A stretch of DNA of 64,000 bases from Candidatus Aenigmatarchaeota archaeon (GCA_018920185.1 JAHLMT010000002.1:91051-155050), one strand, 5' to 3'; shown: positions 29,165 to 40,155, numbered from the stretch's first letter. Notes: a model not told the origin generated them from the letters alone. A program made the numbers and translations.

Positions 29165-30016
29165 GTGAGTAAAATCGCGGCTGAGTTATTAGGATTGGTA
29201 AATATAGAAAGATTAACAATACCAACCATAGTAGTCGGTGCATTCATCGATTCTATAAATCCATGTGCTATTGGTGTGCTCATTTTCCTGATTGCTTACT
29301 TAATGAAAGTTTTCAAAAGTAGAAAAATGTTGCTGTTGGGAGGTGGATTGTACATAACTGCTGTTTATGTTACATATTTTCTTGCTGGTATCGGACTATT
29401 AACAGCGATACAAAATGTTACCATAGCTTATTACTTTTATTGGTTGGCGACTTTCATTGCATTTAGTGCAGCTGCATTTGAAATAAAAGATTTCTTTTGG
29501 TATGGGCGAGGATTTTCCTTACAGTTATTTCCTGGGGGTGCACAACGTTTAACGATATTAGCAAATAAACTGGAGAATATTTCTAAAAAAACACCACAGT
29601 TGGCTTTGTTAATGACTTTACCAATAGGGTTTGCCGCATCGGCATTTGAATTGCCATGTACAGGTCAGGTTTATCTGACGATATTGGCTTTAGTAAGAAG
29701 TGCAGCCGTGTCACAATGGCTTCCCTTGCTTCTGTTTTACAATTTCATCTTTGTGCTTCCATTGATTGTGATAACAGGGTTGATGTTTATAGGTATATCC
29801 AGCCACATTCTCGAAAAATGGAGAAAGAAAAACAGACGTTATATGAGACTTTTAGTAGGATTGTTTTTATATAGCTTAGGAGGATTACTCTTATGGTATA
29901 TATACAACGAATTTACATACGGAGCTTTCATACGACCGTTGACTTTCCTCTTGTATGCATCTCAAGTATCAATCATAGCTTATGTGATTTACAAAGGATT
30001 TTTCGAAAAAGATTAG
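29165..30016 (+). CDS. CcdA/DsbD-like transmembrane electron transporter
   Basis: DSINPCA and ELPCTG paired Cys motifs, LLFYN, 7-8 TMs. Confidence 0.85.
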   Translation: MSKIAAELLGLVNIERLTIPTIVVGAFIDSINPCAIGVLIFLIAYLMKVFKSRKMLLLGGGLYITAVYVTYFLAGIGLLTAIQNVTIAYYFYWLATFIAFSAAAFEIKDFFWYGRGFSLQLFPGGAQRLTILANKLENISKKTPQLALLMTLPIGFAASAFELPCTGQVYLTILALVRSAAVSQWLPLLLFYNFIFVLPLIVITGLMFIGISSHILEKWRKKNRRYMRLLVGLFLYSLGGLLLWYIYNEFTYGAFIRPLTFLLYASQVSIIAYVIYKGFFEKD

Positions 30017-30111
30017 CAGAATTTGCAGATTTTAGGCTCACCTTTCTGATGTTTCTTCAAATCTTTTTTCTCAACCATTTTCCCACATGAACCGCATTTG
30101 ATTTTAGGCAT
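30013..30111 (-). CDS. Putative 32-aa zinc-finger micro-protein
   Basis: MPKIKCGSCGKMVEKKDLKKHQKGEPKICKFC; TATA-like TTTATAAG about 21 nt upstream. Confidence 0.55.
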   Translation of the reverse strand: MPKIKCGSCGKMVEKKDLKKHQKGEPKICKFC

Positions 30112-30240: not shown

Positions 30241-30729
30241 ATGATTCTGAGAAAAGAACAAGTCTGGGTTCTTTTAAGATTGGGAATGGGATGGATTTTC
30301 CTGTGGGCGTTTTTTGACAAGTTATTTGGATTAAGTTTTGCTACCACACCAGATAAATCATGGCTTGCTGGAGGTTCACCAACTTATGGATTTCTGAAGT
30401 TTGCTACTTATGGACCACTCGCTTCATTCTACCATAGTTTGGCGGGAAGTGTTGTAGTCGACTGGTTGTTTATGCTCGGATTACTTGGCATAGGAACAGC
30501 ATTAATATTAGGAATTGTAACTCGGATTGCAAGTTATGCCGGTATAATAATGATGATTTTAATGTGGAGTGCTCTTTTACCGCCTAAAAATAATCCATTC
30601 CTGGATGAACATATCATCTACGCATTAGTTCTGTTGAGTTTATCAACAGTAAGAGCAGGTCAATGGTTTGGTCTCGGAAAATGGTGGAGTAAGACGAGAT
30701 TAGTTAAAAAATACCCAATCCTAGAGTAA
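30241..30729 (+). CDS. DoxX family membrane protein
   Basis: LRLGMGWIFLWAFFDKLFGL, GGSPT.GFL, NNPFLDEH, GLGKWW. Confidence 0.85.
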   Translation: MILRKEQVWVLLRLGMGWIFLWAFFDKLFGLSFATTPDKSWLAGGSPTYGFLKFATYGPLASFYHSLAGSVVVDWLFMLGLLGIGTALILGIVTRIASYAGIIMMILMWSALLPPKNNPFLDEHIIYALVLLSLSTVRAGQWFGLGKWWSKTRLVKKYPILE

Positions 30730-31245
30730 TTATTTCTTCTCAAGGGGACAATTTGTTAATTTACTTAACTTTTCTAAGCTCTGTACACCTGAATAACTTT
30801 TACCATCGATTATCCAGGTGGGATACCCACGAATATTGTTTTCCACACAAAGTTCAGGTTGTGCGTTCTTTCCTTTAGGATCACATTCAACATACTTCAC
30901 AAATTTTATAGATGGTCCAAACATTTTCTTTTGCTCTGCACAATGTGGACACCAATAAGCCCCATAAAATACAGCTCCTTTTTCTGTCAAGCATTGAGCA
31001 AATTCATCGTATAAGCCAGGTTCAACAAATCTACCAGTAATAGAAGTGAAAGCAAAGTAACCTATAACACCAATAACTAATAACGCAGAAACTACTCCAA
31101 TTATCGGCACTTTGGCTAATGTTCTTTTTCTTTCGACTGTTGTAATAATAACTTCTTTATGTATAACATTCTTGTGTTGCTTCAGCGCTTCATTAGTTTT
31201 GAATTTCCTGTTGCATATGTCACAAGAAACCTTTTCCATCATCAT
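30730..31245 (-). CDS. C2H2 zinc finger + TM + extracellular thioredoxin-like domain
   Basis: CDICNRKF...LKQHKNVIH; TM; FAQCL...YGAYWCPHC...YVEC...GYPTW. Confidence 0.85.
   Translation of the reverse strand: MMMEKVSCDICNRKFKTNEALKQHKNVIHKEVIITTVERKRTLAKVPIIGVVSALLVIGVIGYFAFTSITGRFVEPGLYDEFAQCLTEKGAVFYGAYWCPHCAEQKKMFGPSIKFVKYVECDPKGKNAQPELCVENNIRGYPTWIIDGKSYSGVQSLEKLSKLTNCPLEKK
31156..31239 (-). repeat. Direct repeat copy 1 (C2H2 finger coding segment; copy 2 at 42466-42549)
   Basis: 73-bp core 31167-31239 vs 42477-42549 differs at only 3 positions, all synonymous. Confidence 0.9.
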
Positions 31246-31921: not shown

Positions 31922-33007
31922 CTACACAGTTTTTATAATTTCCTTCTTTTTGCTTTTTAACTTCGTTAAATACTCAGAAGCCGCAATAAATGCTTTTGCA
32001 CCTTCACCAGCTGCAACTATCACTTGCTTTTCACTTATATCTGTACAATCGCCAGCAGCAAATATTCCAGAGACACTCGTGTGATTGTTTTTATCAATAA
32101 CTATTTCATCTCTGTCATTTAATTTCAACAAACCTTTGACAAAATCTGTGCTAGGTTTATACCCAACGTTAATAAAAACACCGTCTACACTTATCTTTCG
32201 CTCTTTGCCATCTTGAGAAATTCTAATACCTTTAACAATTTGATCACCAAAAATTTCTAATGTTTTAGTTTTGGTCAGAATCTCAACTTTCGGATGATTT
32301 CTAACAAAATCTGTTGAAGGTCCCAACTGTTTTATCTCATCTGCAATTTCAATTAGATACACCTTTGATGCTATGTTGACTAACTGAGAGGCAGCATCTA
32401 ACCCAGATCTACCACCGCCGATAACAGCAACAACTTTATCTTTGAATAATGGTGCATCACAATGTGCACAAAATGATACTCCTCTTCCTATGTAATCAAG
32501 TTCTCCTGGGATGTTCAAAGTTTTGTTAACTCTTCCAGTTGCAATTATCAAAGCTTTTGAGAAATATGTAGAAGAATCTGTCAGCACATTAAAGCCTTCT
32601 TTTCCAGCTTCAATTTTATTAACGGTTTCATATTTAACTTCTATGTCAAAACTTCTAAAATGTTCTTCAAATTTTTGTTCTAATTCAACACCTGTAATGT
32701 AGTGATAACCTAAGTAATTTTCTATTGGATATGTGTTGATTTTAGTCTGACCACCGATGTCTTTACTTATAACACAAAAATCTAACCTCTGCCTTGCAGC
32801 ATATATCCCAGCAGCTAATCCTGCAGGACCACAACCTATAATAATCAAATCATATTTATCTTTCACAGGCTTACTCGTTATTTCCTTCTTTTGTAATTTT
32901 GTCTGTTCTAAACTTCCTAATGTTTTCCAGTATCTAAAAGCGAATTTCATAAACTGGAAAAATAATTTAATTTTATACCCAAAAGTCTTTAACACCATAT
33001 AAAACAT
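31922..33007 (-). CDS. Thioredoxin reductase / AhpF-like flavoprotein with N-terminal extension
   Basis: GCGPAG, IENYLG, GVSFCAHCDA, GIFAAGD, KQVIVAAGEG. Confidence 0.88.
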   Translation of the reverse strand: MFYMVLKTFGYKIKLFFQFMKFAFRYWKTLGSLEQTKLQKKEITSKPVKDKYDLIIIGCGPAGLAAGIYAARQRLDFCVISKDIGGQTKINTYPIENYLGYHYITGVELEQKFEEHFRSFDIEVKYETVNKIEAGKEGFNVLTDSSTYFSKALIIATGRVNKTLNIPGELDYIGRGVSFCAHCDAPLFKDKVVAVIGGGRSGLDAASQLVNIASKVYLIEIADEIKQLGPSTDFVRNHPKVEILTKTKTLEIFGDQIVKGIRISQDGKERKISVDGVFINVGYKPSTDFVKGLLKLNDRDEIVIDKNNHTSVSGIFAAGDCTDISEKQVIVAAGEGAKAFIAASEYLTKLKSKKKEIIKTV

Positions 33008-33397: not shown

Positions 33398-33907
33398 CTA
33401 TCTTCTCTTTTTAATTACAACTTTTCCTGTGAAAAGTAAAATTAAAACCACAAATAGTACAATAGCTAAAATCCAACCAATTGCAGAAAAAATTAGAAGT
33501 GCGTTGTAACTTGTGTAACAAGCTGGATAATAGTTGCCCATCATCCTCGTCATCATAGGTATCATATACTTACCCATCATTCCCTGAAAGACGGTTTCAC
33601 ATCCCAACCAATTTTTTCCCATTGTAATGTGCATTTGTCTTAGACTCTCAGAGCCTTCACCACCCATCATAACATCCATCTGTTCATGTAATTCTTTATT
33701 ACCTACCATTCTGTCCATTACAGCATCTCCCAATTCTTCAAATTCGTGTTCAGAAATTTTATTGCAATCTAAATCGCTCGCCCGGCTAACATTTTGATTC
33801 GATATCATATGATTCATTATATTATCAACAGATTCAATTTCCATGTGAGCATATACAAAATTGACTAAGAATAGAATACTCGCAAATGTAATTAATATCT
33901 TTTTCAT
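33398..33907 (-). CDS. Met/His-rich exported protein with C-terminal TM (candidate copper-binding)
   Basis: Signal peptide ending AHM; EELGDAVMDRM...HEQMDVMMGGEGSESLRQMHITMG..WLGC; MMG repeats. Confidence 0.75.
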   Translation of the reverse strand: MKKILITFASILFLVNFVYAHMEIESVDNIMNHMISNQNVSRASDLDCNKISEHEFEELGDAVMDRMVGNKELHEQMDVMMGGEGSESLRQMHITMGKNWLGCETVFQGMMGKYMIPMMTRMMGNYYPACYTSYNALLIFSAIGWILAIVLFVVLILLFTGKVVIKKRR

Positions 33908-33935
33908 ACAATCAACTTTTGTTTTTTTTAACTAA

Positions 33936-33980
33936 TTATTGATGGTGTTTGCACTTTCTACTTCCGCAACATTTTGGCAT
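33936..33980 (-). CDS. Putative 14-aa Cys/His micropeptide MPKCCGSRKCKHHQ
   Basis: AGGAGGT 6 nt before ATG; starts 3 nt after upstream stop. Confidence 0.45.
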   Translation of the reverse strand: MPKCCGSRKCKHHQ

Positions 33981-33983
33981 ATA

Positions 33984-34655
33984 CTAACCTCCTAAACATT
34001 CCTTATATCTATCAGGATGATGACTCATGTGTTCTCTCCAAGCTCCATCTGTATATCCTGGTGGTGTTGTACATTTATCATTTAATTCAGTTGCAATAAA
34101 TTTTCTATAACCAACATATTTCTTGTACCATTGATACACTAGGAACGAAAAAACTACAATTAACACTATAAGAACTACGCCAAAAGTAATCTGCAACAAT
34201 ACTTTTCTATCTATATTGAATTTTACTCTATTTTTCTTCGCAAGATTTATCATACTAATTATACCTACTATGTTTGAAACTATACCAACTGCAAGTAAAA
34301 CTGGTTGATACTGTAATAGAAATACACCAACAGCTGACACACCAAGAATAGGCATTACATCAGTTACATGATGAACACAGCATGCTACCATTGATGTCAT
34401 GGATATACCTCCACATGCACCAGTTGTGCCTGTAGACATTTTCATAAAATTTCTGATATAAATAAAAAGACCAACCTGAACTCCAAATCCAATTACAAGT
34501 GGAGTCATCAAGTACCAGAACTCTACGAATCTACCAATAGCATAATTCAATCCTTGAAACAAACTAACAATTATCAAGTACAGAAAAATAAGCGATAAGC
34601 TTGATAAAATACCGTAAATAATAGACTTTCTCCAAATCTTAGTTTTTCTAACCAT
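33984..34655 (-). CDS. Membrane protein with CCxHH motif and C-terminal Cys/His/Met module
   Basis: SMVACCVHH; KCTTPPGYTDGAWREHMSHHPDRYKECL. Confidence 0.75.
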   Translation of the reverse strand: MVRKTKIWRKSIIYGILSSLSLIFLYLIIVSLFQGLNYAIGRFVEFWYLMTPLVIGFGVQVGLFIYIRNFMKMSTGTTGACGGISMTSMVACCVHHVTDVMPILGVSAVGVFLLQYQPVLLAVGIVSNIVGIISMINLAKKNRVKFNIDRKVLLQITFGVVLIVLIVVFSFLVYQWYKKYVGYRKFIATELNDKCTTPPGYTDGAWREHMSHHPDRYKECLGG

Positions 34656-34719
34656 TCTTACAACACTCTATCATAGCTTTTGCTATCTTTTTAAGTATCT
34701 GTTTAAATCTGAATCTCAT
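34648..34719 (-). CDS. Putative 23-aa micropeptide MRFRFKQILKKIAKAMIECCKNG
   Basis: ATGA overlap with upstream stop and 8-nt overlap with downstream start. Confidence 0.45.
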   Translation of the reverse strand: MRFRFKQILKKIAKAMIECCKNG

Positions 34720-35060
34720 CTATAAACACCTGACAATATCAAATAAACAATCAAAACTCCAAAAAGAATTACCAACGGCTTTATTAAAAGTAAGTTCTTG
34801 TTTTCAGTAGTTTTAACTCTTCTTTCTAGAAAATACATAAATCCTACCACCGAACCTCCCATAAGAATCGCAACAATACTCTGGGGAATGGCATATCCGA
34901 TTAATTTCATCACCAACAAACCTGACCATGTTGAAACAATAGTTGCGCAAATTGCACAAATCTCGAATTTAAAAATTCTCTTTATCAAATTTCTTAGAAC
35001 TAGCCATGTGAAATAAATTCCTACCATTGTTAGCAACACATAATAAATTACATCAACCAT
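34716..35060 (-). CDS. Small membrane protein with CxxC
   Basis: ICAICA, LMGGSVVG, four hydrophobic segments. Confidence 0.7.
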   Translation of the reverse strand: MVDVIYYVLLTMVGIYFTWLVLRNLIKRIFKFEICAICATIVSTWSGLLVMKLIGYAIPQSIVAILMGGSVVGFMYFLERRVKTTENKNLLLIKPLVILFGVLIVYLILSGVYR

Positions 35061-35570
35061 TTACATCACCAAATATAAAACTAACGAACTCGTAATGAGC
35101 GATAGAATAAAAATAAAAATAGACTGATAAGGCAGAAAATTTCTGTTTCTATTAAATTTTCTAAGAATCTCATGAAGTTTGAATGACGCGAAAGATACTC
35201 CAATTCCAATTAATGTGCCAAATAGAATCCTATCAATACCAAATATCTTGAAAGGATTTGGAGGACCAATTAATTTAGCAAAATAAAATGTTACAATTGT
35301 GAGGATAAAGAATATAATCAATACTATGACAGGTTGAAATGGGATATACTCCTTTCCCTTATTGTGTCTTTTAACCATATTGTTTATCCACAATCCAGTT
35401 GCTACTACCATCCCTCCGACAAATACACCAACAATAGAATCGTCAACACCGTACCATCTAGTAAATGCTACTGCTGCACCAGTTGCCGCTGTACACAAAG
35501 GACAATGTGCTAATACAGTTGAAATTAAAAAAATAAAGGAAAAAAGAAACGAAATAAAATAAAATTTCAT
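35061..35570 (-). CDS. Membrane protein with N-terminal HCPLC motif
   Basis: Signal peptide ending VLA-HCPLCT; GVDD, PFQ/PYQ motifs; GAGGTGA RBS. Confidence 0.75.
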   Translation of the reverse strand: MKFYFISFLFSFIFLISTVLAHCPLCTAATGAAVAFTRWYGVDDSIVGVFVGGMVVATGLWINNMVKRHNKGKEYIPFQPVIVLIIFFILTIVTFYFAKLIGPPNPFKIFGIDRILFGTLIGIGVSFASFKLHEILRKFNRNRNFLPYQSIFIFILSLITSSLVLYLVM

Positions 35571-35590
35571 ACATCACCTCTTGCATAATT

Positions 35591-35677
35591 TCAGTAGCAA
35601 CCTTTTCCTCCCCTATTTTTCATCCTACAAAAGTTTTTGTGATCTAGCTTCATTCCACATTGTTCACATCTCGACAT
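35591..35677 (-). CDS. Putative 28-aa four-Cys micropeptide MSRCEQCGMKLDHKNFCRMKNRGGKGCY
   Basis: Fills the 35571-35690 gap; CxxCGM motif. Confidence 0.5.
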   Translation of the reverse strand: MSRCEQCGMKLDHKNFCRMKNRGGKGCY

Positions 35678-35690
35678 TCCTAATCCAAAT

Positions 35691-36128
35691 TTAACCATGG
35701 TGGCTCCTCATATTGCTAAAATCTTGTGTTCTTATCACCCTTGCAGTTCCGTCAGAATCAAGAATTTCTATTATCATTTTTTCTGGACCATACATATGTA
35801 TGCAAGGCTGTACAGCCATATTGTGACGATAACGAAAATTTAACACACCATATTCAGCTGTCTTTATACCACCATCACATTCGGTAATTGGTGAGCCCAC
35901 GCAATTTCTATCATACACACTTATGCCTTCTATTCTTCCTGGTTTGACTTTTACATTTGTTATCTTACCTTCGAACACATTAAGATCTGATGGAATATCG
36001 TAACTTGTATACCCAGTTTTAGGTGCATATAGTTTGTAACCAAAGACTGTCATTAACCCTAGTAATAGAGTTATGATTGCTATACTTAATACCCAACCGC
36101 TAACTTTTATTTTAATCAATTTTATCAA
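35691..36128 (-). CDS. Membrane-anchored exported protein with Cys/His/Met motifs
   Basis: TM; DRNCVG...TECDGG...YRHNMAVQPCIHM; C-terminal MRSHHG. Confidence 0.7.
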   Translation of the reverse strand: MIKLIKIKVSGWVLSIAIITLLLGLMTVFGYKLYAPKTGYTSYDIPSDLNVFEGKITNVKVKPGRIEGISVYDRNCVGSPITECDGGIKTAEYGVLNFRYRHNMAVQPCIHMYGPEKMIIEILDSDGTARVIRTQDFSNMRSHHG

Positions 36129-36164
36129 AAATTAACTCAAGGAAATATCTTATAAACATTAAAG

Positions 36165-36178
36165 TGAAACTAGTTTCA
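36165..36178. promoter_or_regulatory. Perfect palindrome TGAAACTAGTTTCA (site 1), 8 bp upstream of minus-strand TATA TTTATAAG (36149-36156)
   Basis: Read directly; identical copy at 36641. Confidence 0.7.
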
Positions 36179-36664
36179 TTCAGTTTTTAGCAGCACCAGA
36201 TTACTCATTCCGCGTCTTCTTCGCTCAACTAATCCTTTAGTTTCTAACCTGTCTAATATCCTGCTTACTTTTACTTTTGAGAATCCGCTTACATTAATCA
36301 AATCATTCTGAAATGCAGAACCGTCATTTTTAGTCAACTCGTTGAATATCTTCTTTTCATCCTCGGACAAATCTTTAATAATTTTATTTAACTTTGCTTT
36401 AGAAATTGTTTGTGTTCTCTCTCCTTTAGGTTGGTTAAGAGCCAGATAACTTCCTATACCAGCAGATACTATTAGAATACCAAATCCCGCATAAGCTTGC
36501 ACAGGTATATGATTGACTAAAGTACAAGATGGTGACCCACATAACGCATGTTCCATACGTGCATACCCAAGGGAAATGGTTAACAAAATGACAAACATTA
36601 TAATGGATATACCAATTATTGACATACCAAGATAGTTTGTTGAAACTAGTTTCATATACGACAA
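36176..36664 (-). CDS. Two-TM membrane-anchored winged-HTH regulator (probable start ATG 36655)
   Basis: Two TMs around loop MEHALCGSPSCTLVNH; C-terminal LSEDEKKI..L...G...QNDL...GFSKVKVSRILDRLE.KGLVERRRRGMSN. Confidence 0.85.
   Translation of the reverse strand: MSYMKLVSTNYLGMSIIGISIIMFVILLTISLGYARMEHALCGSPSCTLVNHIPVQAYAGFGILIVSAGIGSYLALNQPKGERTQTISKAKLNKIIKDLSEDEKKIFNELTKNDGSAFQNDLINVSGFSKVKVSRILDRLETKGLVERRRRGMSNLVLLKTE
36641..36654. promoter_or_regulatory. Perfect palindrome TGAAACTAGTTTCA (site 2) overlapping the regulator's probable start
   Basis: Identical to site 1; minus-strand TTAAATA box at about 36677-36683. Confidence 0.7.
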
Positions 36665-36680: not shown

Positions 36681-38834
36681 TTAAGTGTTAGCTATTGGCG
36701 GTTTGTATCTATTTAGAAGCATAGCATTTCCTACTACAGAAATTGAGCTAGTAGCCATAGCCATAGCGGCATAAATAGGATTCAACAAAATACCAAAGAA
36801 GGGATATAGTAATCCTGCAGCTACTGGAATCAATGCCACATTGTAAAAGAATGCCCAGAAAAGATTCTGTTTCATCTTGTTCACAGTTGCTTTGCTCAAA
36901 TCAATCGCAGTTACAACATCACGCAAATCATTCTTAATCAGCACTATCCCGCCAGTTTCTTTTGCAATATCTGTTCCTGCACCTATAGCGATACCAACAT
37001 CGGCTTGTGCCAACATAGGTGCGTCATTAATACCGTCACCACATGCTGCAACAATTTCTCCTCTTTCCTGTAATTCTTTCACTTTCTTTGCTTTGTCCTG
37101 AGGTAGTACCTGTGCCATTATCTTATCTTCATCAATTCCAATTTGCGATGCAATTGCTTTAGCAGTTCTCTCGTTATCACCAGTAATCATCCAGACTTCT
37201 TTGCCCATTCTCTTTAATTCTTTAACAGCTTCTTTTGAAAATTCTTTTAATGTGTCAGCAATTGCAATCAATCCAACAACTTTTTTATTGTAAACAACTA
37301 TCACAACAGTTTTACCCTCGCTTTCTAGTTTTTGAATTTGTTCTTCAAGATTTTCTGTTTGTATGTTGTTGTCTTTCATGAGTATTCTGTTCCCAACTAA
37401 GACAGTTCTATTCTGATAAGTTGCTTTAATTCCTTTTCCGGCAACAGTTTCGTACGATTTCCCTTCACGCAATGTTAGTTTCATTTCCCTAGCTTTTTTA
37501 ATTATAGCCTGTCCTAACGGGTGTTCCGACCCTTTTTCAGCTAGTGCAGCCAACTCAAGTACATCCTTTTCTGTAGAACCTATTGGAATAACATCAGTAA
37601 CAGAAGGTTCCCCTTTTGTCAATGTTCCGGTCTTGTCAAAAATAATCGATGTTATCTTATGTGTTTTCTCTAAATACTCACCGCTTTTAATTAAAATTCC
37701 ATTCTGCGCACCTTTACCTGCGCCAATCATTATTGCAGACGGTGTAGCGATTCCTAAAGCACATGGACACGCAATTATTAGAACAGAAATCAAGATTGTC
37801 AATGCCAACGGGAATGATAATCCACCCACAAAATACCATAGGATAAATGAACCTATAGCAATCAATATAACAACAGGAACAAAATAAGCTGATACCAAAT
37901 CAGCCATCCTTTGCATGGGTGCTCTACTAGCTATCGCTTCCTGTACCATTTTAACTATTTGTGATAATGTCATCTCAGCTCCAACTCTCGTCGCTTTTAC
38001 TTTCAACAAACCACTTTTGTTAATCGTCGCGCCGATAACCTCGTCACCAACCTTCTTACCAACAGGTATTGACTCACCTGTAATCATTGATTCATCAATC
38101 GAAGAATGACCTTCTACAATAACTCCATCAACAGCTATCTTTTCACCTGGTTTCACAATGAAAATATCACCAACTTTAACTTGTTCAATAGGAATTTGCT
38201 GTTCTTTTCCGTCTCTGATAACAGTTGCTAACTTTGGTTGTAAGTCAATCAGTTTTCTGATAGCTTGCGATGCCCTTCCCTTTACCAAATGTTCAAAATA
38301 TTTTCCAAGTAGAATGAAACCAATAATCAAACCAGATTCTGTAAAATATACTTCTGGTCCGCCAGTTGTAACTTTTGGAAATATCTGTGGCCATAGAATT
38401 CCTTGGAATGTGTAAATAGTACTGTAAATCCATGCGGCTGATGTACCGATGGCGATTAAACTATCCATGTTAGCTTGCTTAGCTTTTATTGCATCAAGAG
38501 TTCCTCTGTAAAACCTCCACCCGCCAATAAACTGCACAGGAGTTGCTAAGAAAAATAGCCAAATGTAGTTAGGTATGTCAAACCATGAAATTTTGTAGAT
38601 ATATTCAAATATTGCTGTAAGTGCTCCCAAACTCAGGCTGAATATTGTGATGTATTTAAGTTTTTTAATTTCTTTTTGTGGTTTTAGGAAAGTATCCAGA
38701 CAATTGTTGCTACAGAAATAATATTTCATTCCATCTTGTTCAGCTTTAAATGGAGTCTTATTTTCATCAACATACATCCCACAGACAATATCTTTTGCCA
38801 CAGACTCTCTCCTCTTACAATTTAACATTCGCAA
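36681..38834 (-). CDS. copA: Cu(I)-translocating P1B ATPase with N-terminal YHS/TRASH domain (probable start GTG 38801)
   Basis: KDIVCGM...[44 protein letters not shown]. Confidence 0.95.
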
Positions 38835-38857: not shown

Positions 38858-39364
38858 CTATCTCAAGCTAGCAAACTTGATTATTATTTCATCACCATCT
38901 TTTATAGTATACTTTTCAAATTCCTCGTTCTCTTTACCATTAACAAACATTCTCAAACTACCGTTACAATAATCAAAAATACATTCACTATCAAATCTCT
39001 TACCCCAGACATCATTAATAAAATATCCGATTGTTAATGTCTCTGGTTTTGCAGAAGGATTTAGATTTTCGATATGCAATTTACCTGTTGAATCATGCGT
39101 GTGGATAGGTGACATGTGCATACCACTTATATGATTGTCAATATTATTACCTGTAGTTATCCCCACACCAGCAGGTATCGGAATTTGTTTGCCATCAATT
39201 AGAATTGTCAATTTTGCATGCCAATGTATATTCTTTGTAAGTAAACTTACATTACCAGTTCTAGAAACAGCAAACAAAGAGTATAAACCGAGTATCAAGC
39301 CAATAGCACCAATTATTGTTACAAAAGTCAGTATCAAAGTTTCATTTCTTTTAGACCCGATCAT
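38858..39364 (-). CDS. Membrane-anchored His-rich exported protein
   Basis: TM; [38 protein letters not shown]. Confidence 0.75.
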
Positions 39365-40155
39365 GTTACATTGACTACCTTATTCTGGGTTAAATCCTTA
39401 TAGGTTCCCATTTGTTCTGTTGCTCTAAACACGTACCAGCCGTCGCTTTCAACTGTGCCCACTTGATTCCATATCCGAGTTAAAGCTGGATATACCGAAA
39501 TATCTGGTGAAAGAATTATAGTAGGAACTTTTGTTATATTATACTTCTTCAATAAATCCTTTCCATTAGAGGAGGATATATCGTAAGTTAACGATTTGTC
39601 TATATAGACCCCAAATCTCGGAAGTATTTGCATATGATTTTCGACGTTATAACATTCTGTGCAGGAATTGTCTGTTATCTTGATTACTTGAACTAGCCCA
39701 ACAACATTTTTTGTCTCCAGACTATAATATGGTGGATACCCACTCACAATTACAACATTTCCAACAAATTCAGCGCCTATATTGTTCCATAAAGGTATCA
39801 CATCATCCTGAAGTGTTTCACCTGTAATTACTAAAGCTGGCAGAACTTTGATATTATTCTTTGATATAAGCTGTTGTGCTTCCTTATTTCCGTATGTGAG
39901 ATTCTTTTCTGTGAGTACTTTCACATTTGTTTGTCTTTTAATAAACGATACAATATTGTTCATATCAAAGCAATTATCACAATCAGTAGTAATTAGAGTC
40001 AGATGTAAGTTTGCTGGTCTTTCCTTTTCAGATTTCAGAGGAGAAATAATTTTACTGGTAATAAATATATTCACACCATACAAAACAATCAGAGCTACTA
40101 TTAGCCCTAAAAATACATTCCTGTATAATCTGTTTTCATCTCTAAGTCTTCTCAA
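39361..40155 (-). CDS. Membrane-anchored protein with two thioredoxin-like CxxC domains
   Basis: CDNCFD...IKVLPAL and CTECYN...ITKVPTI. Confidence 0.75.
   Translation of the reverse strand: MRRLRDENRLYRNVFLGLIVALIVLYGVNIFITSKIISPLKSEKERPANLHLTLITTDCDNCFDMNNIVSFIKRQTNVKVLTEKNLTYGNKEAQQLISKNNIKVLPALVITGETLQDDVIPLWNNIGAEFVGNVVIVSGYPPYYSLETKNVVGLVQVIKITDNSCTECYNVENHMQILPRFGVYIDKSLTYDISSSNGKDLLKKYNITKVPTIILSPDISVYPALTRIWNQVGTVESDGWYVFRATEQMGTYKDLTQNKVVNVT

Follow-up and report, generated by a model that had tools for sequence, protein, structure and literature searches.

In a 64,000-nucleotide stretch of DNA from a Candidatus Aenigmatarchaeota archaeon (GCA_018920185.1, JAHLMT010000002.1:91051-155050; hereafter the window, with positions counted from its first letter), a minus-strand operon joins the gene of a P1B-type ATPase (copA) to a regulator gene, five larger genes for membrane or exported proteins (p145, p169a, p114, p223, and p169b), and three micro-open reading frames (micro-ORFs) of 35, 23, and 14 amino acids (aa), named m35, m23, and m14. 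Judged by their sequences and those of their relatives, the three micro-ORFs are very probably genuine conserved genes of three different kinds, with m23 the split-off tail of the membrane protein family to which its neighbor p114 belongs. Taken as a whole, the explanation offered here, a copA operon with three unlike micro-genes that would serve a soft-metal relay, has in our estimate a probability of about 0.6. The genes are as follows, with TM standing for transmembrane helix and RBS for ribosome-binding site:

p264, 39361-40155, minus strand: thioredoxin-fold protein
p168, 38858-39364, minus strand
copA, 36681-38834, minus strand: P1B-type ATPase; YHS domain at the N-terminus, CPC motif
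reg162, 36176-36664, minus strand: two hydrophobic segments flanking a C-x4-C pair, then a winged-helix regulator domain at the C-terminus
p145, 35691-36128, minus strand: N-terminal membrane helix and a small beta-barrel domain
m35, 35591-35698, minus strand: 35-aa Cys4 micro-ORF
p169a, 35061-35570, minus strand: multi-pass membrane protein with an invariant AHCPLC
p114, 34716-35060, minus strand: 114-aa membrane protein with four TMs and a CxxC (ICAIC)
m23, 34648-34719, minus strand: 23-aa basic amphipathic helix with an ECCKNG end
p223, 33984-34655, minus strand: five-helix membrane domain and C-terminal Cys/His domain, with ACCVHH and HMSHH
m14, 33936-33980, minus strand: 14-aa peptide MPKCCGSRKCKHHQ with an AGGAGGT RBS ahead
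p169b, 33398-33907, minus strand: signal-like N-terminus, Met/His-rich domain, and C-terminal membrane anchor

The genes from p264 to p169b run head to tail on the minus strand, and every junction is either an overlap or a gap of 0-47 nt. An earlier reading made from the sequence alone had proposed five co-oriented ORFs with likely metal ligands and a Cys-rich micro-ORF in each of the three sizeable gaps. The region it named (33398-36128) amounts to the distal two-thirds of the copA operon. We found p145, p169a, p114, p223, and p169b all present on the minus strand, with the motifs quoted for them in their translations, and a same-strand micro-ORF in each gap (35591-35698, 34648-34719, and 33936-33980). 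The first of these had been given as 35591-35677 and 28 aa; its true start is the ATG at 35698, which overlaps the p145 stop (ATGGTTAA) and gives 35 aa, as the orthologues share the N-terminus MV.LFG.G. The couplings claimed by the sequence-only reading were borne out, in that the p114 stop and m23 start share an ATGA and the AGGAGGT lies 6 nt upstream of the m14 ATG. In addition, the m23 stop and the p223 start overlap by 8 nt.

The association of m23 with p114 was clear across the phylum. A p114 profile, searched against 371 phylum genomes, found p114 in 11 (E<=1e-33; nine weak matches with E 3.6e-4 to 0.0097 were left out), all belonging to one family, and in 10 of the 11 the next ORF after p114 is of the m23 type, with two adjacent Cys at its end. 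These ORFs are 21-23 aa long with an ECC(K/R)NG end in seven genomes, 27 aa (G114) and 26 aa (G014) with an ECCE end, and 30 aa with a DCC end in G144. As G144 has no p223 following and nevertheless has the m23 form, the peptide travels with p114. Length differences among the homologues are multiples of three. For seven sequences and 20 ungapped codons, variable columns at the three codon positions numbered 8/8/16 and pairwise differences 80/70/178. The sequence-only reading had named a ratio of nonsynonymous (dN) to synonymous (dS) change below 1 as a check, and m23 shows a mean dN of 0.18 against a dS of ~1.5, saturation affecting 10 of the 21 pairs. Shifting the frame gave dN 0.35/dS 0.08 and dN 0.26/dS 0.34, and the shifted frames contain stops in all sequences except that of L029, whose second shifted frame is clean. 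The m23 codons are under purifying selection. The 14 residues preceding the CC form an amphipathic helix in eight of nine m23 homologues (moment 0.64-0.90, reached by <=1% of shuffles), and the homologues carry a net charge of +3 to +8.

A further search with a p114 family profile yielded 116 proteins of 64-196 aa, all without a Pfam domain and all "hypothetical," and these divide by length and tail. A CC tail terminates all 72 of the 72 long forms (136-196 aa) and is absent from all 44 of the 44 short forms (64-122 aa), the latter occurring also in other phyla such as Woesearchaeota. The tails of the 72 long forms are of the types CC[KRS][NDK]W (39), HCC[DY] (23), CC (8), and other (2), the commonest typically reading …K(K/R)(L/I)IECCKNW. 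An m23 hidden Markov model (HMM), run on 562 sequences (330 proteins, 116 reversed decoys, and 116 tail-shuffled decoys), gave 11 matches at E<=0.01, solely to C-termini of the p114 family, and the best other sequence had E=1.0. By hhalign, the final 17 positions of the fused family are matched by m23 columns 11-27 (94.1%, E 1.3e-7), and fused positions 3-104 by p114 residues 1-111 (99.7%, E 1.1e-26). Fused positions 105-129 have no counterpart in p114 or m23, and this missing piece is a hydrophobic segment; consistently, 42 of 72 long forms have five hydrophobic segments and 36 of 44 short forms have four. A fused query against the 371 phylum genomes recovered the same 11 loci only, in the core region only. 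The fused CC-tail proteins have no Pfam or NCBIfam match and fall in Atlas clusters without a name, and the only NCBIfam match among the five larger proteins of the operon, that of p114 to SpoIIGA, scored a meaningless 15.5 bits against a cutoff of 209.

Since m23 matches the fused C-termini and p114 the fused core, the two together very probably represent a split version of one protein, a variant of an undescribed family with a CxxC core and a CC tail in which core and tail lie on two ORFs. By homology, m23 is very probably the detached cytoplasmic CC tail of the p114 family rather than a free metallothionein, and is most likely a subunit of p114. We considered whether ECCKNG might be kept merely by its overlap with the p223 start and rejected this, as in the window a stop codon interrupts the p223 frame 15 nt before the p223 ATG, the ECCE and DCC homologues retain the CC, and the fused proteins carry CCKNW. 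Separately, a paralogous relationship between p169a and p114 was examined and no claim is made (tblastn weak, 27% identity, E 6.6e-4; hhalign probability 17%).

We then examined whether the operon is conserved and linked to copA. The copA translation matches the Pfam families E1-E2_ATPase (1.5e-59), Hydrolase (HAD; 4.5e-39), and YHS (1.4e-12), and contains ACPCALG; the CPC motif within it is assigned to the Cu(I) specificity of P1B-1 ATPases. A p223 search of 41 related genomes gave nine matches, around which seven loci were fetched (L010-L016); these and the other orthologous loci are from Candidatus Aenigmatarchaeota metagenome-assembled genomes. The order regulator, p145, gap, p169a, p114, m23, p223-like gene recurs in five other genomes of the same genus (L010-L014), with p169b next in four of them, L013 excepted. 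copA precedes in L010, L011, L012, and L014, and the L013 contig stops within the regulator gene. In L014, an unrelated membrane protein of 135 aa takes the place of the p223 membrane domain, with the C-terminal domain standing by itself; L015 and L016 hold partial versions of the operon. L022, found by scanning genome contigs with the p114 alignment, is rearranged, with copA downstream and two extra YHS genes; the Cys pair of reg162 is retained there. As a further observation, an 88-91-aa gene for a two-TM protein (Pfam DUF5676, 2.6e-6) lies between the small gene and p169a in L010 (2697-2972), L011, L013, and L014, and is absent from the window and L012.

Metagenomes extend this picture. A scan for p223 relatives gave none with an earlier alignment (A2) and 362 with alignment A3, from which 80 loci were kept; 28 of them contain a copA-like gene, and among the 43 loci of >=5 kb the number is 23. 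The operon is linked to copA: the copper association proposed by the sequence-only reading is supported by copA within the fetched stretch of 7 of the 11 p114-bearing loci, as well as beside the p223-like genes in metagenomes. That reading had also named related operons as a check on the micro-ORFs, which do retain their frame, Cys codons, and stop position in orthologues.

The Cys pattern of the micro-ORFs exceeds chance. We surveyed the six reading frames of the whole 643-kb genome, in whose long ORFs Cys makes up 1.09% of residues, and counted 4553 ORFs that begin with ATG and encode 12-40 aa. CC occurs in 107 and at least four Cys in 43 of the 4553, and among the 1644 ORFs of <=16 aa at least three Cys occur in 21. 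An end of [ED]CC plus 0-3 residues was found in only 1 of the 4553 small ORFs, namely m23. A collection of 15 billion predicted proteins lacks six of the seven m23 homologues and the window m35, holding only the 30-aa m23 form, nameless, which indicates that gene callers pass these genes over.

The second micro-gene, m35, appears to be of a different origin. Genes of 51-57 aa with the same start occupy its slot in L012, L013, L014, L015, and L022. Three full-length orthologues (L013, L015, and L022) were tested against families, giving best E values of 6.1e-6 for zf-FCS, 3.5e-5 for zf-FLZ, and about 1e-3 for YHS, families that we take to form one Pfam clan with TRASH. Two of the three score above cutoff (L022, zf-FCS, 26.4 bits against 22.4; L013, zf-FLZ, 23.6 bits against 23.4), and the L015 orthologue falls under it (zf-FCS, 19.0 bits; YHS, 19.5 bits). 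Aligned to these, the window m35 has one 51-nt in-frame gap by which the second Cys pair (C-x3-C) is lost, and a Tyr-to-Cys change in its tail restores a fourth Cys, so that its spacing is C-x2-C-x9-C-x9-C against C-x2-C-x17-19-C-x3-C in the orthologues. The TRASH Cys pattern is C-x2-C ... C-x3-C. The window m35 fails to resemble TRASH-type proteins in family match and Cys pattern, and agrees with them in its position within a cop cluster. From these alignments, m35 appears to derive by internal deletion from a small zf-FCS/zf-FLZ/YHS-type protein of 51-57 aa, and, by position, would occupy the slot that the TRASH chaperone (CopM/CopT) has in known archaeal cop clusters.

The third micro-gene, m14, has a narrower distribution. 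Its degenerate codon pattern was found in 4 of the 371 phylum genomes, all of one genus and always inside the operon. It lies behind p223 in both the window and L011; in L010, which lacks the zf-FCS-type gene, it follows p145 with the same GTTTAGGAGGTTA…ATATGCC leader and RBS. Over 11 codons, variable columns at the three positions number 3/3/9, and codon-pair differences are 24 synonymous versus 12 nonsynonymous. The stop is retained in all four, and identity is 64-91% within the ORF versus 20-45% in the following 20 nt. No fused counterpart of m14 was found among the p223 (62), p169b (108), p145 (44), or p114 (116) families. Readthrough of the p223 stop was considered as a source of m14 and set aside: it would be in frame in the window and L011, not in L010, where m14 follows p145, and m14 has its own RBS. 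m14 looks like a real, young, selected Cys3His2 gene restricted to one genus, and its composition would suit thiolate metal binding or hand-off.

None of the five larger proteins p145, p169a, p114, p223, and p169b matched a Pfam model, and they fall in families without Pfam or NCBIfam models, in line with the inference of an undescribed operon in the sequence-only reading. p145 has 44 representatives with invariant D73, C76, C84, H102, and C109 (alignment A8). Its AlphaFold2 (AF2) model (predicted local distance difference test score [pLDDT] 89.8) consists of a membrane helix and a six-stranded beta domain; no PDB sequence matched, Foldseek gave nothing at E<=0.001, and in a wide VIA search SlyB scored Z 6.3 and OB folds scored Z 4-5.6, matches so weak that they indicate merely a common small beta-barrel. 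CusF and CopC are not among the matches listed for this fold, which says nothing either way. The Atlas clusters of p169a are all hypothetical, and its AHCPLC is invariant in alignment A10. p169b has 108 relatives, all hypothetical and some with a SHOCT domain, and gave no NCBIfam or PDB sequence match.

p223 has 62 relatives, 59 of them without Pfam domains. Its membrane domain carries a nearly invariant S..M.ACC.HH.TD (alignment A3) and stands alone in Chloroflexota and other records; the C-terminal Cys/His domain is predicted to face outward. The AF2 model (pLDDT 80.9) had no Foldseek match in the PDB at E<=0.001, and its best hits in the wide VIA search (Z 8.1) were designed helical bundles, indicating a generic helix bundle only. 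The other three relatives (P0054, P0058, and P0060) match solely the C-terminal C..PPGYTD..W.EHM.HHPD..EC domain and carry rhodanese (PF00581). This suggests that the C-terminal domain is a mobile module, possibly tied to sulfur or thiol chemistry. reg162, which matches Pfam DUF7343 (5.1e-13) and also MarR_2 and TrmB, is syntenic in seven related loci and may be a membrane-bound metal or redox sensor replacing the TRASH-containing CopR.

The genome comprises 643 kb in 8 contigs at 34.2% GC, and the operon GC is similar (32-38%). Public runs containing the window are labeled hot-springs metagenomes. Contigs from four runs span 33398-36200 with zero indels and three single-base differences; the window may itself derive from these four runs, which thus lend no independent support to the assembly. 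By manual codon reading, a C>T difference at 35608 in three of the four runs changes m35 Gly31 to Arg, and a difference at 34613 changes p223 Gly15 to Ser.

Together, these features can be arranged into a copper-relay mechanism, which we hold tentatively and at somewhat less than even odds. In most relatives, the CxxC core with its four TMs shares a single polypeptide of ~145-165 aa with a fifth TM and a tail that is basic and amphipathic (ending in IECCKNW, EHCCD, or CC). In the archaeal family studied here, the fifth helix is missing and the tail is a separate, translationally coupled peptide of 21-30 aa. The tail is basic, as are the loops that precede the CxxC and follow TM3, from which we infer that all three face the cytoplasm; without the fifth helix the core would end outside, so that a tail able to reach the CxxC side has to be made on its own and lack a signal peptide, as is seen. 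The amphipathic helix of m23 would then dock on the cytoplasmic face of p114 and place its CC beside the CxxC, and the resulting thiolate site would accept a soft metal, with Cu(I) the likeliest, for transfer toward CopA, toward the Cys2His2 site that p223 has in the membrane, or toward both. The relay would comprise the zf-FCS-type protein, the p114+m23 site, and perhaps m14 on the cytoplasmic side, and the p145 and p169b domains and the C-terminal domain of p223 on the outer side. It is a more doubtful proposition that p114+m23 and the fused proteins of Candidate Phyla Radiation (CPR) bacteria and DPANN archaea form a new class of membrane-integral soft-metal thiolate relay partnering P1B ATPases and p223, with m14 among the smallest dedicated metal-handling products.

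Several observations weigh against this explanation. No public RNA run is listed as holding the locus. Placing the p114 CxxC on the cytoplasmic side draws on the positive-inside rule and the lack of a signal peptide in m23, and on nothing further. No m23 follows p114 in G115 (L033, 70% complete), and m23-type ORFs lie upstream of p223-like genes in 0 of the 80 metagenome loci, which ties m23 to p114 and not to the wider system. For m35, the window copy matches zero families in Pfam and NCBIfam, it has lost 51 nt and shows the nonsynonymous polymorphism in three of four runs, and the gene is deleted in L010 and L011; it may be decaying. The m14 sample amounts to four related genomes only, and in L012 a 1-nt deletion puts its ATG out of frame with the Cys codons, which there continue from an ATG inside the end of p223. 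Finally, with a TrxR-like reductase, thioredoxin-fold proteins, and DoxX nearby, a redox role is equally compatible with the Cys motifs.

Some further small proteins were noted at these loci. A 73-aa DUF2933 membrane protein starting with MVLCC follows p114 in G115/L033 in place of m23, and the small Cys-knuckle proteins of L032 and L033 have GGGCC ends, making a two-Cys end recurrent among the small proteins of the operon. Three of the 80 p223-like metagenome genes are preceded by YHS/zf-FCS-like small proteins with CCK or CCH ends.

The redox role deserves to be weighed on its own terms. Here, p114+m23, p169a, and p223 would act as a thiol-disulfide relay in the manner of DsbD/CcdA or VKOR/DsbB, keeping exported Cys proteins such as p145 and the p223 C-terminal domain reduced or oxidized, with copA a mere stress-related neighbor. 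DsbB and VKOR have a four-TM core with a CxxC plus a second Cys pair. A TrxR-like flavoprotein gene (31922-33007, minus strand) with a 50-aa N-terminal extension lies 390 nt downstream of the operon, a homologue adjoins the operon in L012, and such genes are near p223-like genes in 6 of the 80 metagenome loci; within ~6 kb there are also the thioredoxin-fold p264 and a 171-aa protein, DoxX, and a multi-pass Cys membrane protein. However, the most constant neighbors are copA and the small metal-binding proteins of the zf-FCS/YHS type, and the CC, HH, and D of p223 and the Met-rich p169b provide ligand sets suited to metals and not motifs of the redox kind. Within p114 there would be no route across the membrane, since the predicted topology puts the m23 tail and the CxxC together on the cytoplasmic face. 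Pfam and NCBIfam gave no DsbB, VKOR, or CcdA match for p114, p169a, p223, or the fused forms, and these families are not among the matches listed for the p223 fold; the fold searches covered p223 and p145, not p114. We consider a thiol-disulfide relay, the main alternative, unlikely.

Two features of this neighborhood are recorded for their own sake. The 171-aa protein (30730-31245, minus strand) has an unusual architecture, joining a C2H2-type zinc finger at its N-terminus to a membrane helix and a CPHC domain of thioredoxin-like type. A 32-aa micro-ORF (30013-30111, minus strand), starting MPK… and containing C-x2-C … C-x2-C, is zinc-ribbon-like (weak Pfam match to Zn_ribbon_ACC, 9.9e-5); it is flanked by the DoxX gene (30241-30729, plus strand) and by a gene (29165-30016, plus strand) whose 283-aa product, a multi-pass Cys membrane protein, has no Pfam match.

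Alternatively, m14 and m35 could be free cytosolic mini-metallothioneins that sequester Cu(I) independently of the membrane proteins. Their Cys density would suit this, with three Cys and two His in the 14 aa of m14 and four Cys in the 35 aa of m35, as would their lack of signal peptides; m14 keeps a strong RBS of its own and survived its move in L010, where the zf-FCS-type gene is missing, and one zf-FCS-like m35 orthologue shows a weak prokaryotic metallothionein match (E 0.005, under the family cutoff). On the other hand, m14 is confined to four genomes of one genus, and a single 14-aa peptide has too few thiolates for a cluster unless it is oligomeric, while m35 derives from a zinc-knuckle-type fold and not a metallothionein. 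Neither m23 nor m35 matched PF02069 (prokaryotic metallothionein), a search in which m14 (under 20 aa) was left out. We regard free mini-metallothioneins as rather improbable. The tiny metallothionein-like peptides of the sequence-only reading are not supported for m23, a membrane-protein tail, or for m35, of the zf-FCS/zf-FLZ/YHS kind; only m14 is still compatible with them.

That the micro-ORFs have no peptide function, as ribosome-coupling spacers, leaders sensing Cys-tRNA or metal, or chance ORFs, is very improbable: all junctions are overlapped or very short, as in translational coupling, and gene collections omit m35 and most m23 forms (six of seven), but amino acids are conserved, with dN far under dS in the m23 frame alone and a third-position bias in m14, m23 is the conserved tail of full-length proteins in other lineages, such Cys-rich tails are rare among the random small ORFs of the genome, and a general scan of the 64-kb window, which included no gap-specific RNA structure search, found no Rfam element at family threshold. 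Peptides that couple translation to the supply of cysteine or metal, the other option raised by the sequence-only reading, are likewise disfavored: a leader-peptide role is unlikely given selection on the whole peptide, the position of the ORFs between genes and not ahead of the operon, and the fused counterpart of m23.

We compared the copA operon and its proposed relay with the closest known systems. An archaeal cop cluster consists of CopA, a regulator, and an optional TRASH chaperone (CopM/CopT) (PMC7830388), and the operon shares with the cop clusters of Saccharolobus and Thermococcales the grouping of a P1B ATPase with a regulator of the winged-helix type and a small protein of the Cys-knuckle (zf-FCS/zf-FLZ/YHS) type. 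It differs in that the regulator is membrane-anchored and without a TRASH domain, the gene resembling the chaperone has been shortened in the window and lost from two relatives, and five extra membrane or exported proteins without models are inserted along with two further micro-genes. Small accessory subunits of membrane transporters, such as KdpF, AcrZ, and CydX, are single transmembrane helices. m23 resembles these as a translationally coupled peptide of <30 aa in the operon of a presumed membrane partner, and is unlike them in being a charged amphipathic helix with a two-Cys end and a piece of its partner's own family.

The mer system hands metal between vicinal Cys by way of the CC pairs of MerT/MerF and the C-terminal CC tail of MerA. 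Adjacent Cys on a flexible terminal tail and in a membrane helix (ACC.HH of p223) recall this arrangement. The sequences showed no relationship to it, MerA and MerR are both absent, and the operon's ATPase is a Cu(I)-type enzyme by its CPC motif. CupA of Streptococcus pneumoniae is a membrane-anchored copper chaperone with a cupredoxin-like soluble domain on one anchor helix; p114+m23 would be like it, as an idea, in offering a membrane-tethered, cytoplasm-facing Cu(I) site beside copA, and is unlike it in having a four-TM core with a separate tail. The window micro-peptides share with SmtA-type metallothioneins (PF02069) their very small size, Cys richness, and cytosolic location, and m35 shares CxxCG with the C(P)XCG zinc-finger micro-proteins of Haloferax (PMC11241148). 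m14 and m23 are far shorter than any described prokaryotic metallothionein or C(P)XCG member.

In the papers that our literature searches turned up, the cop cluster itself is described and the accessory families, the split-tail microprotein, and the 14-aa peptide are not. Searches for the tail motifs ECCKNW, ECCKNG, and EHCCD returned nothing relevant, and among the papers found on Aenigmarchaeota copper or CopA there were none on the operon.

DPANN archaea and similar small-genome symbionts are annotated almost wholly by homology, and here a copper-linked operon holds five proteins invisible to Pfam and NCBIfam and three genes invisible to gene callers. m23 is very probably a microprotein born by splitting off the tail of a membrane protein, with its partner p114 named from sequence alone, and the CxxC/CC-tail family to which both trace is widespread, unnamed, and spread over 116 clusters. 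If true, the metal relay would add a membrane-embedded step to copper handling in archaea and CPR bacteria, which has so far comprised an ATPase, a soluble chaperone, and a regulator.

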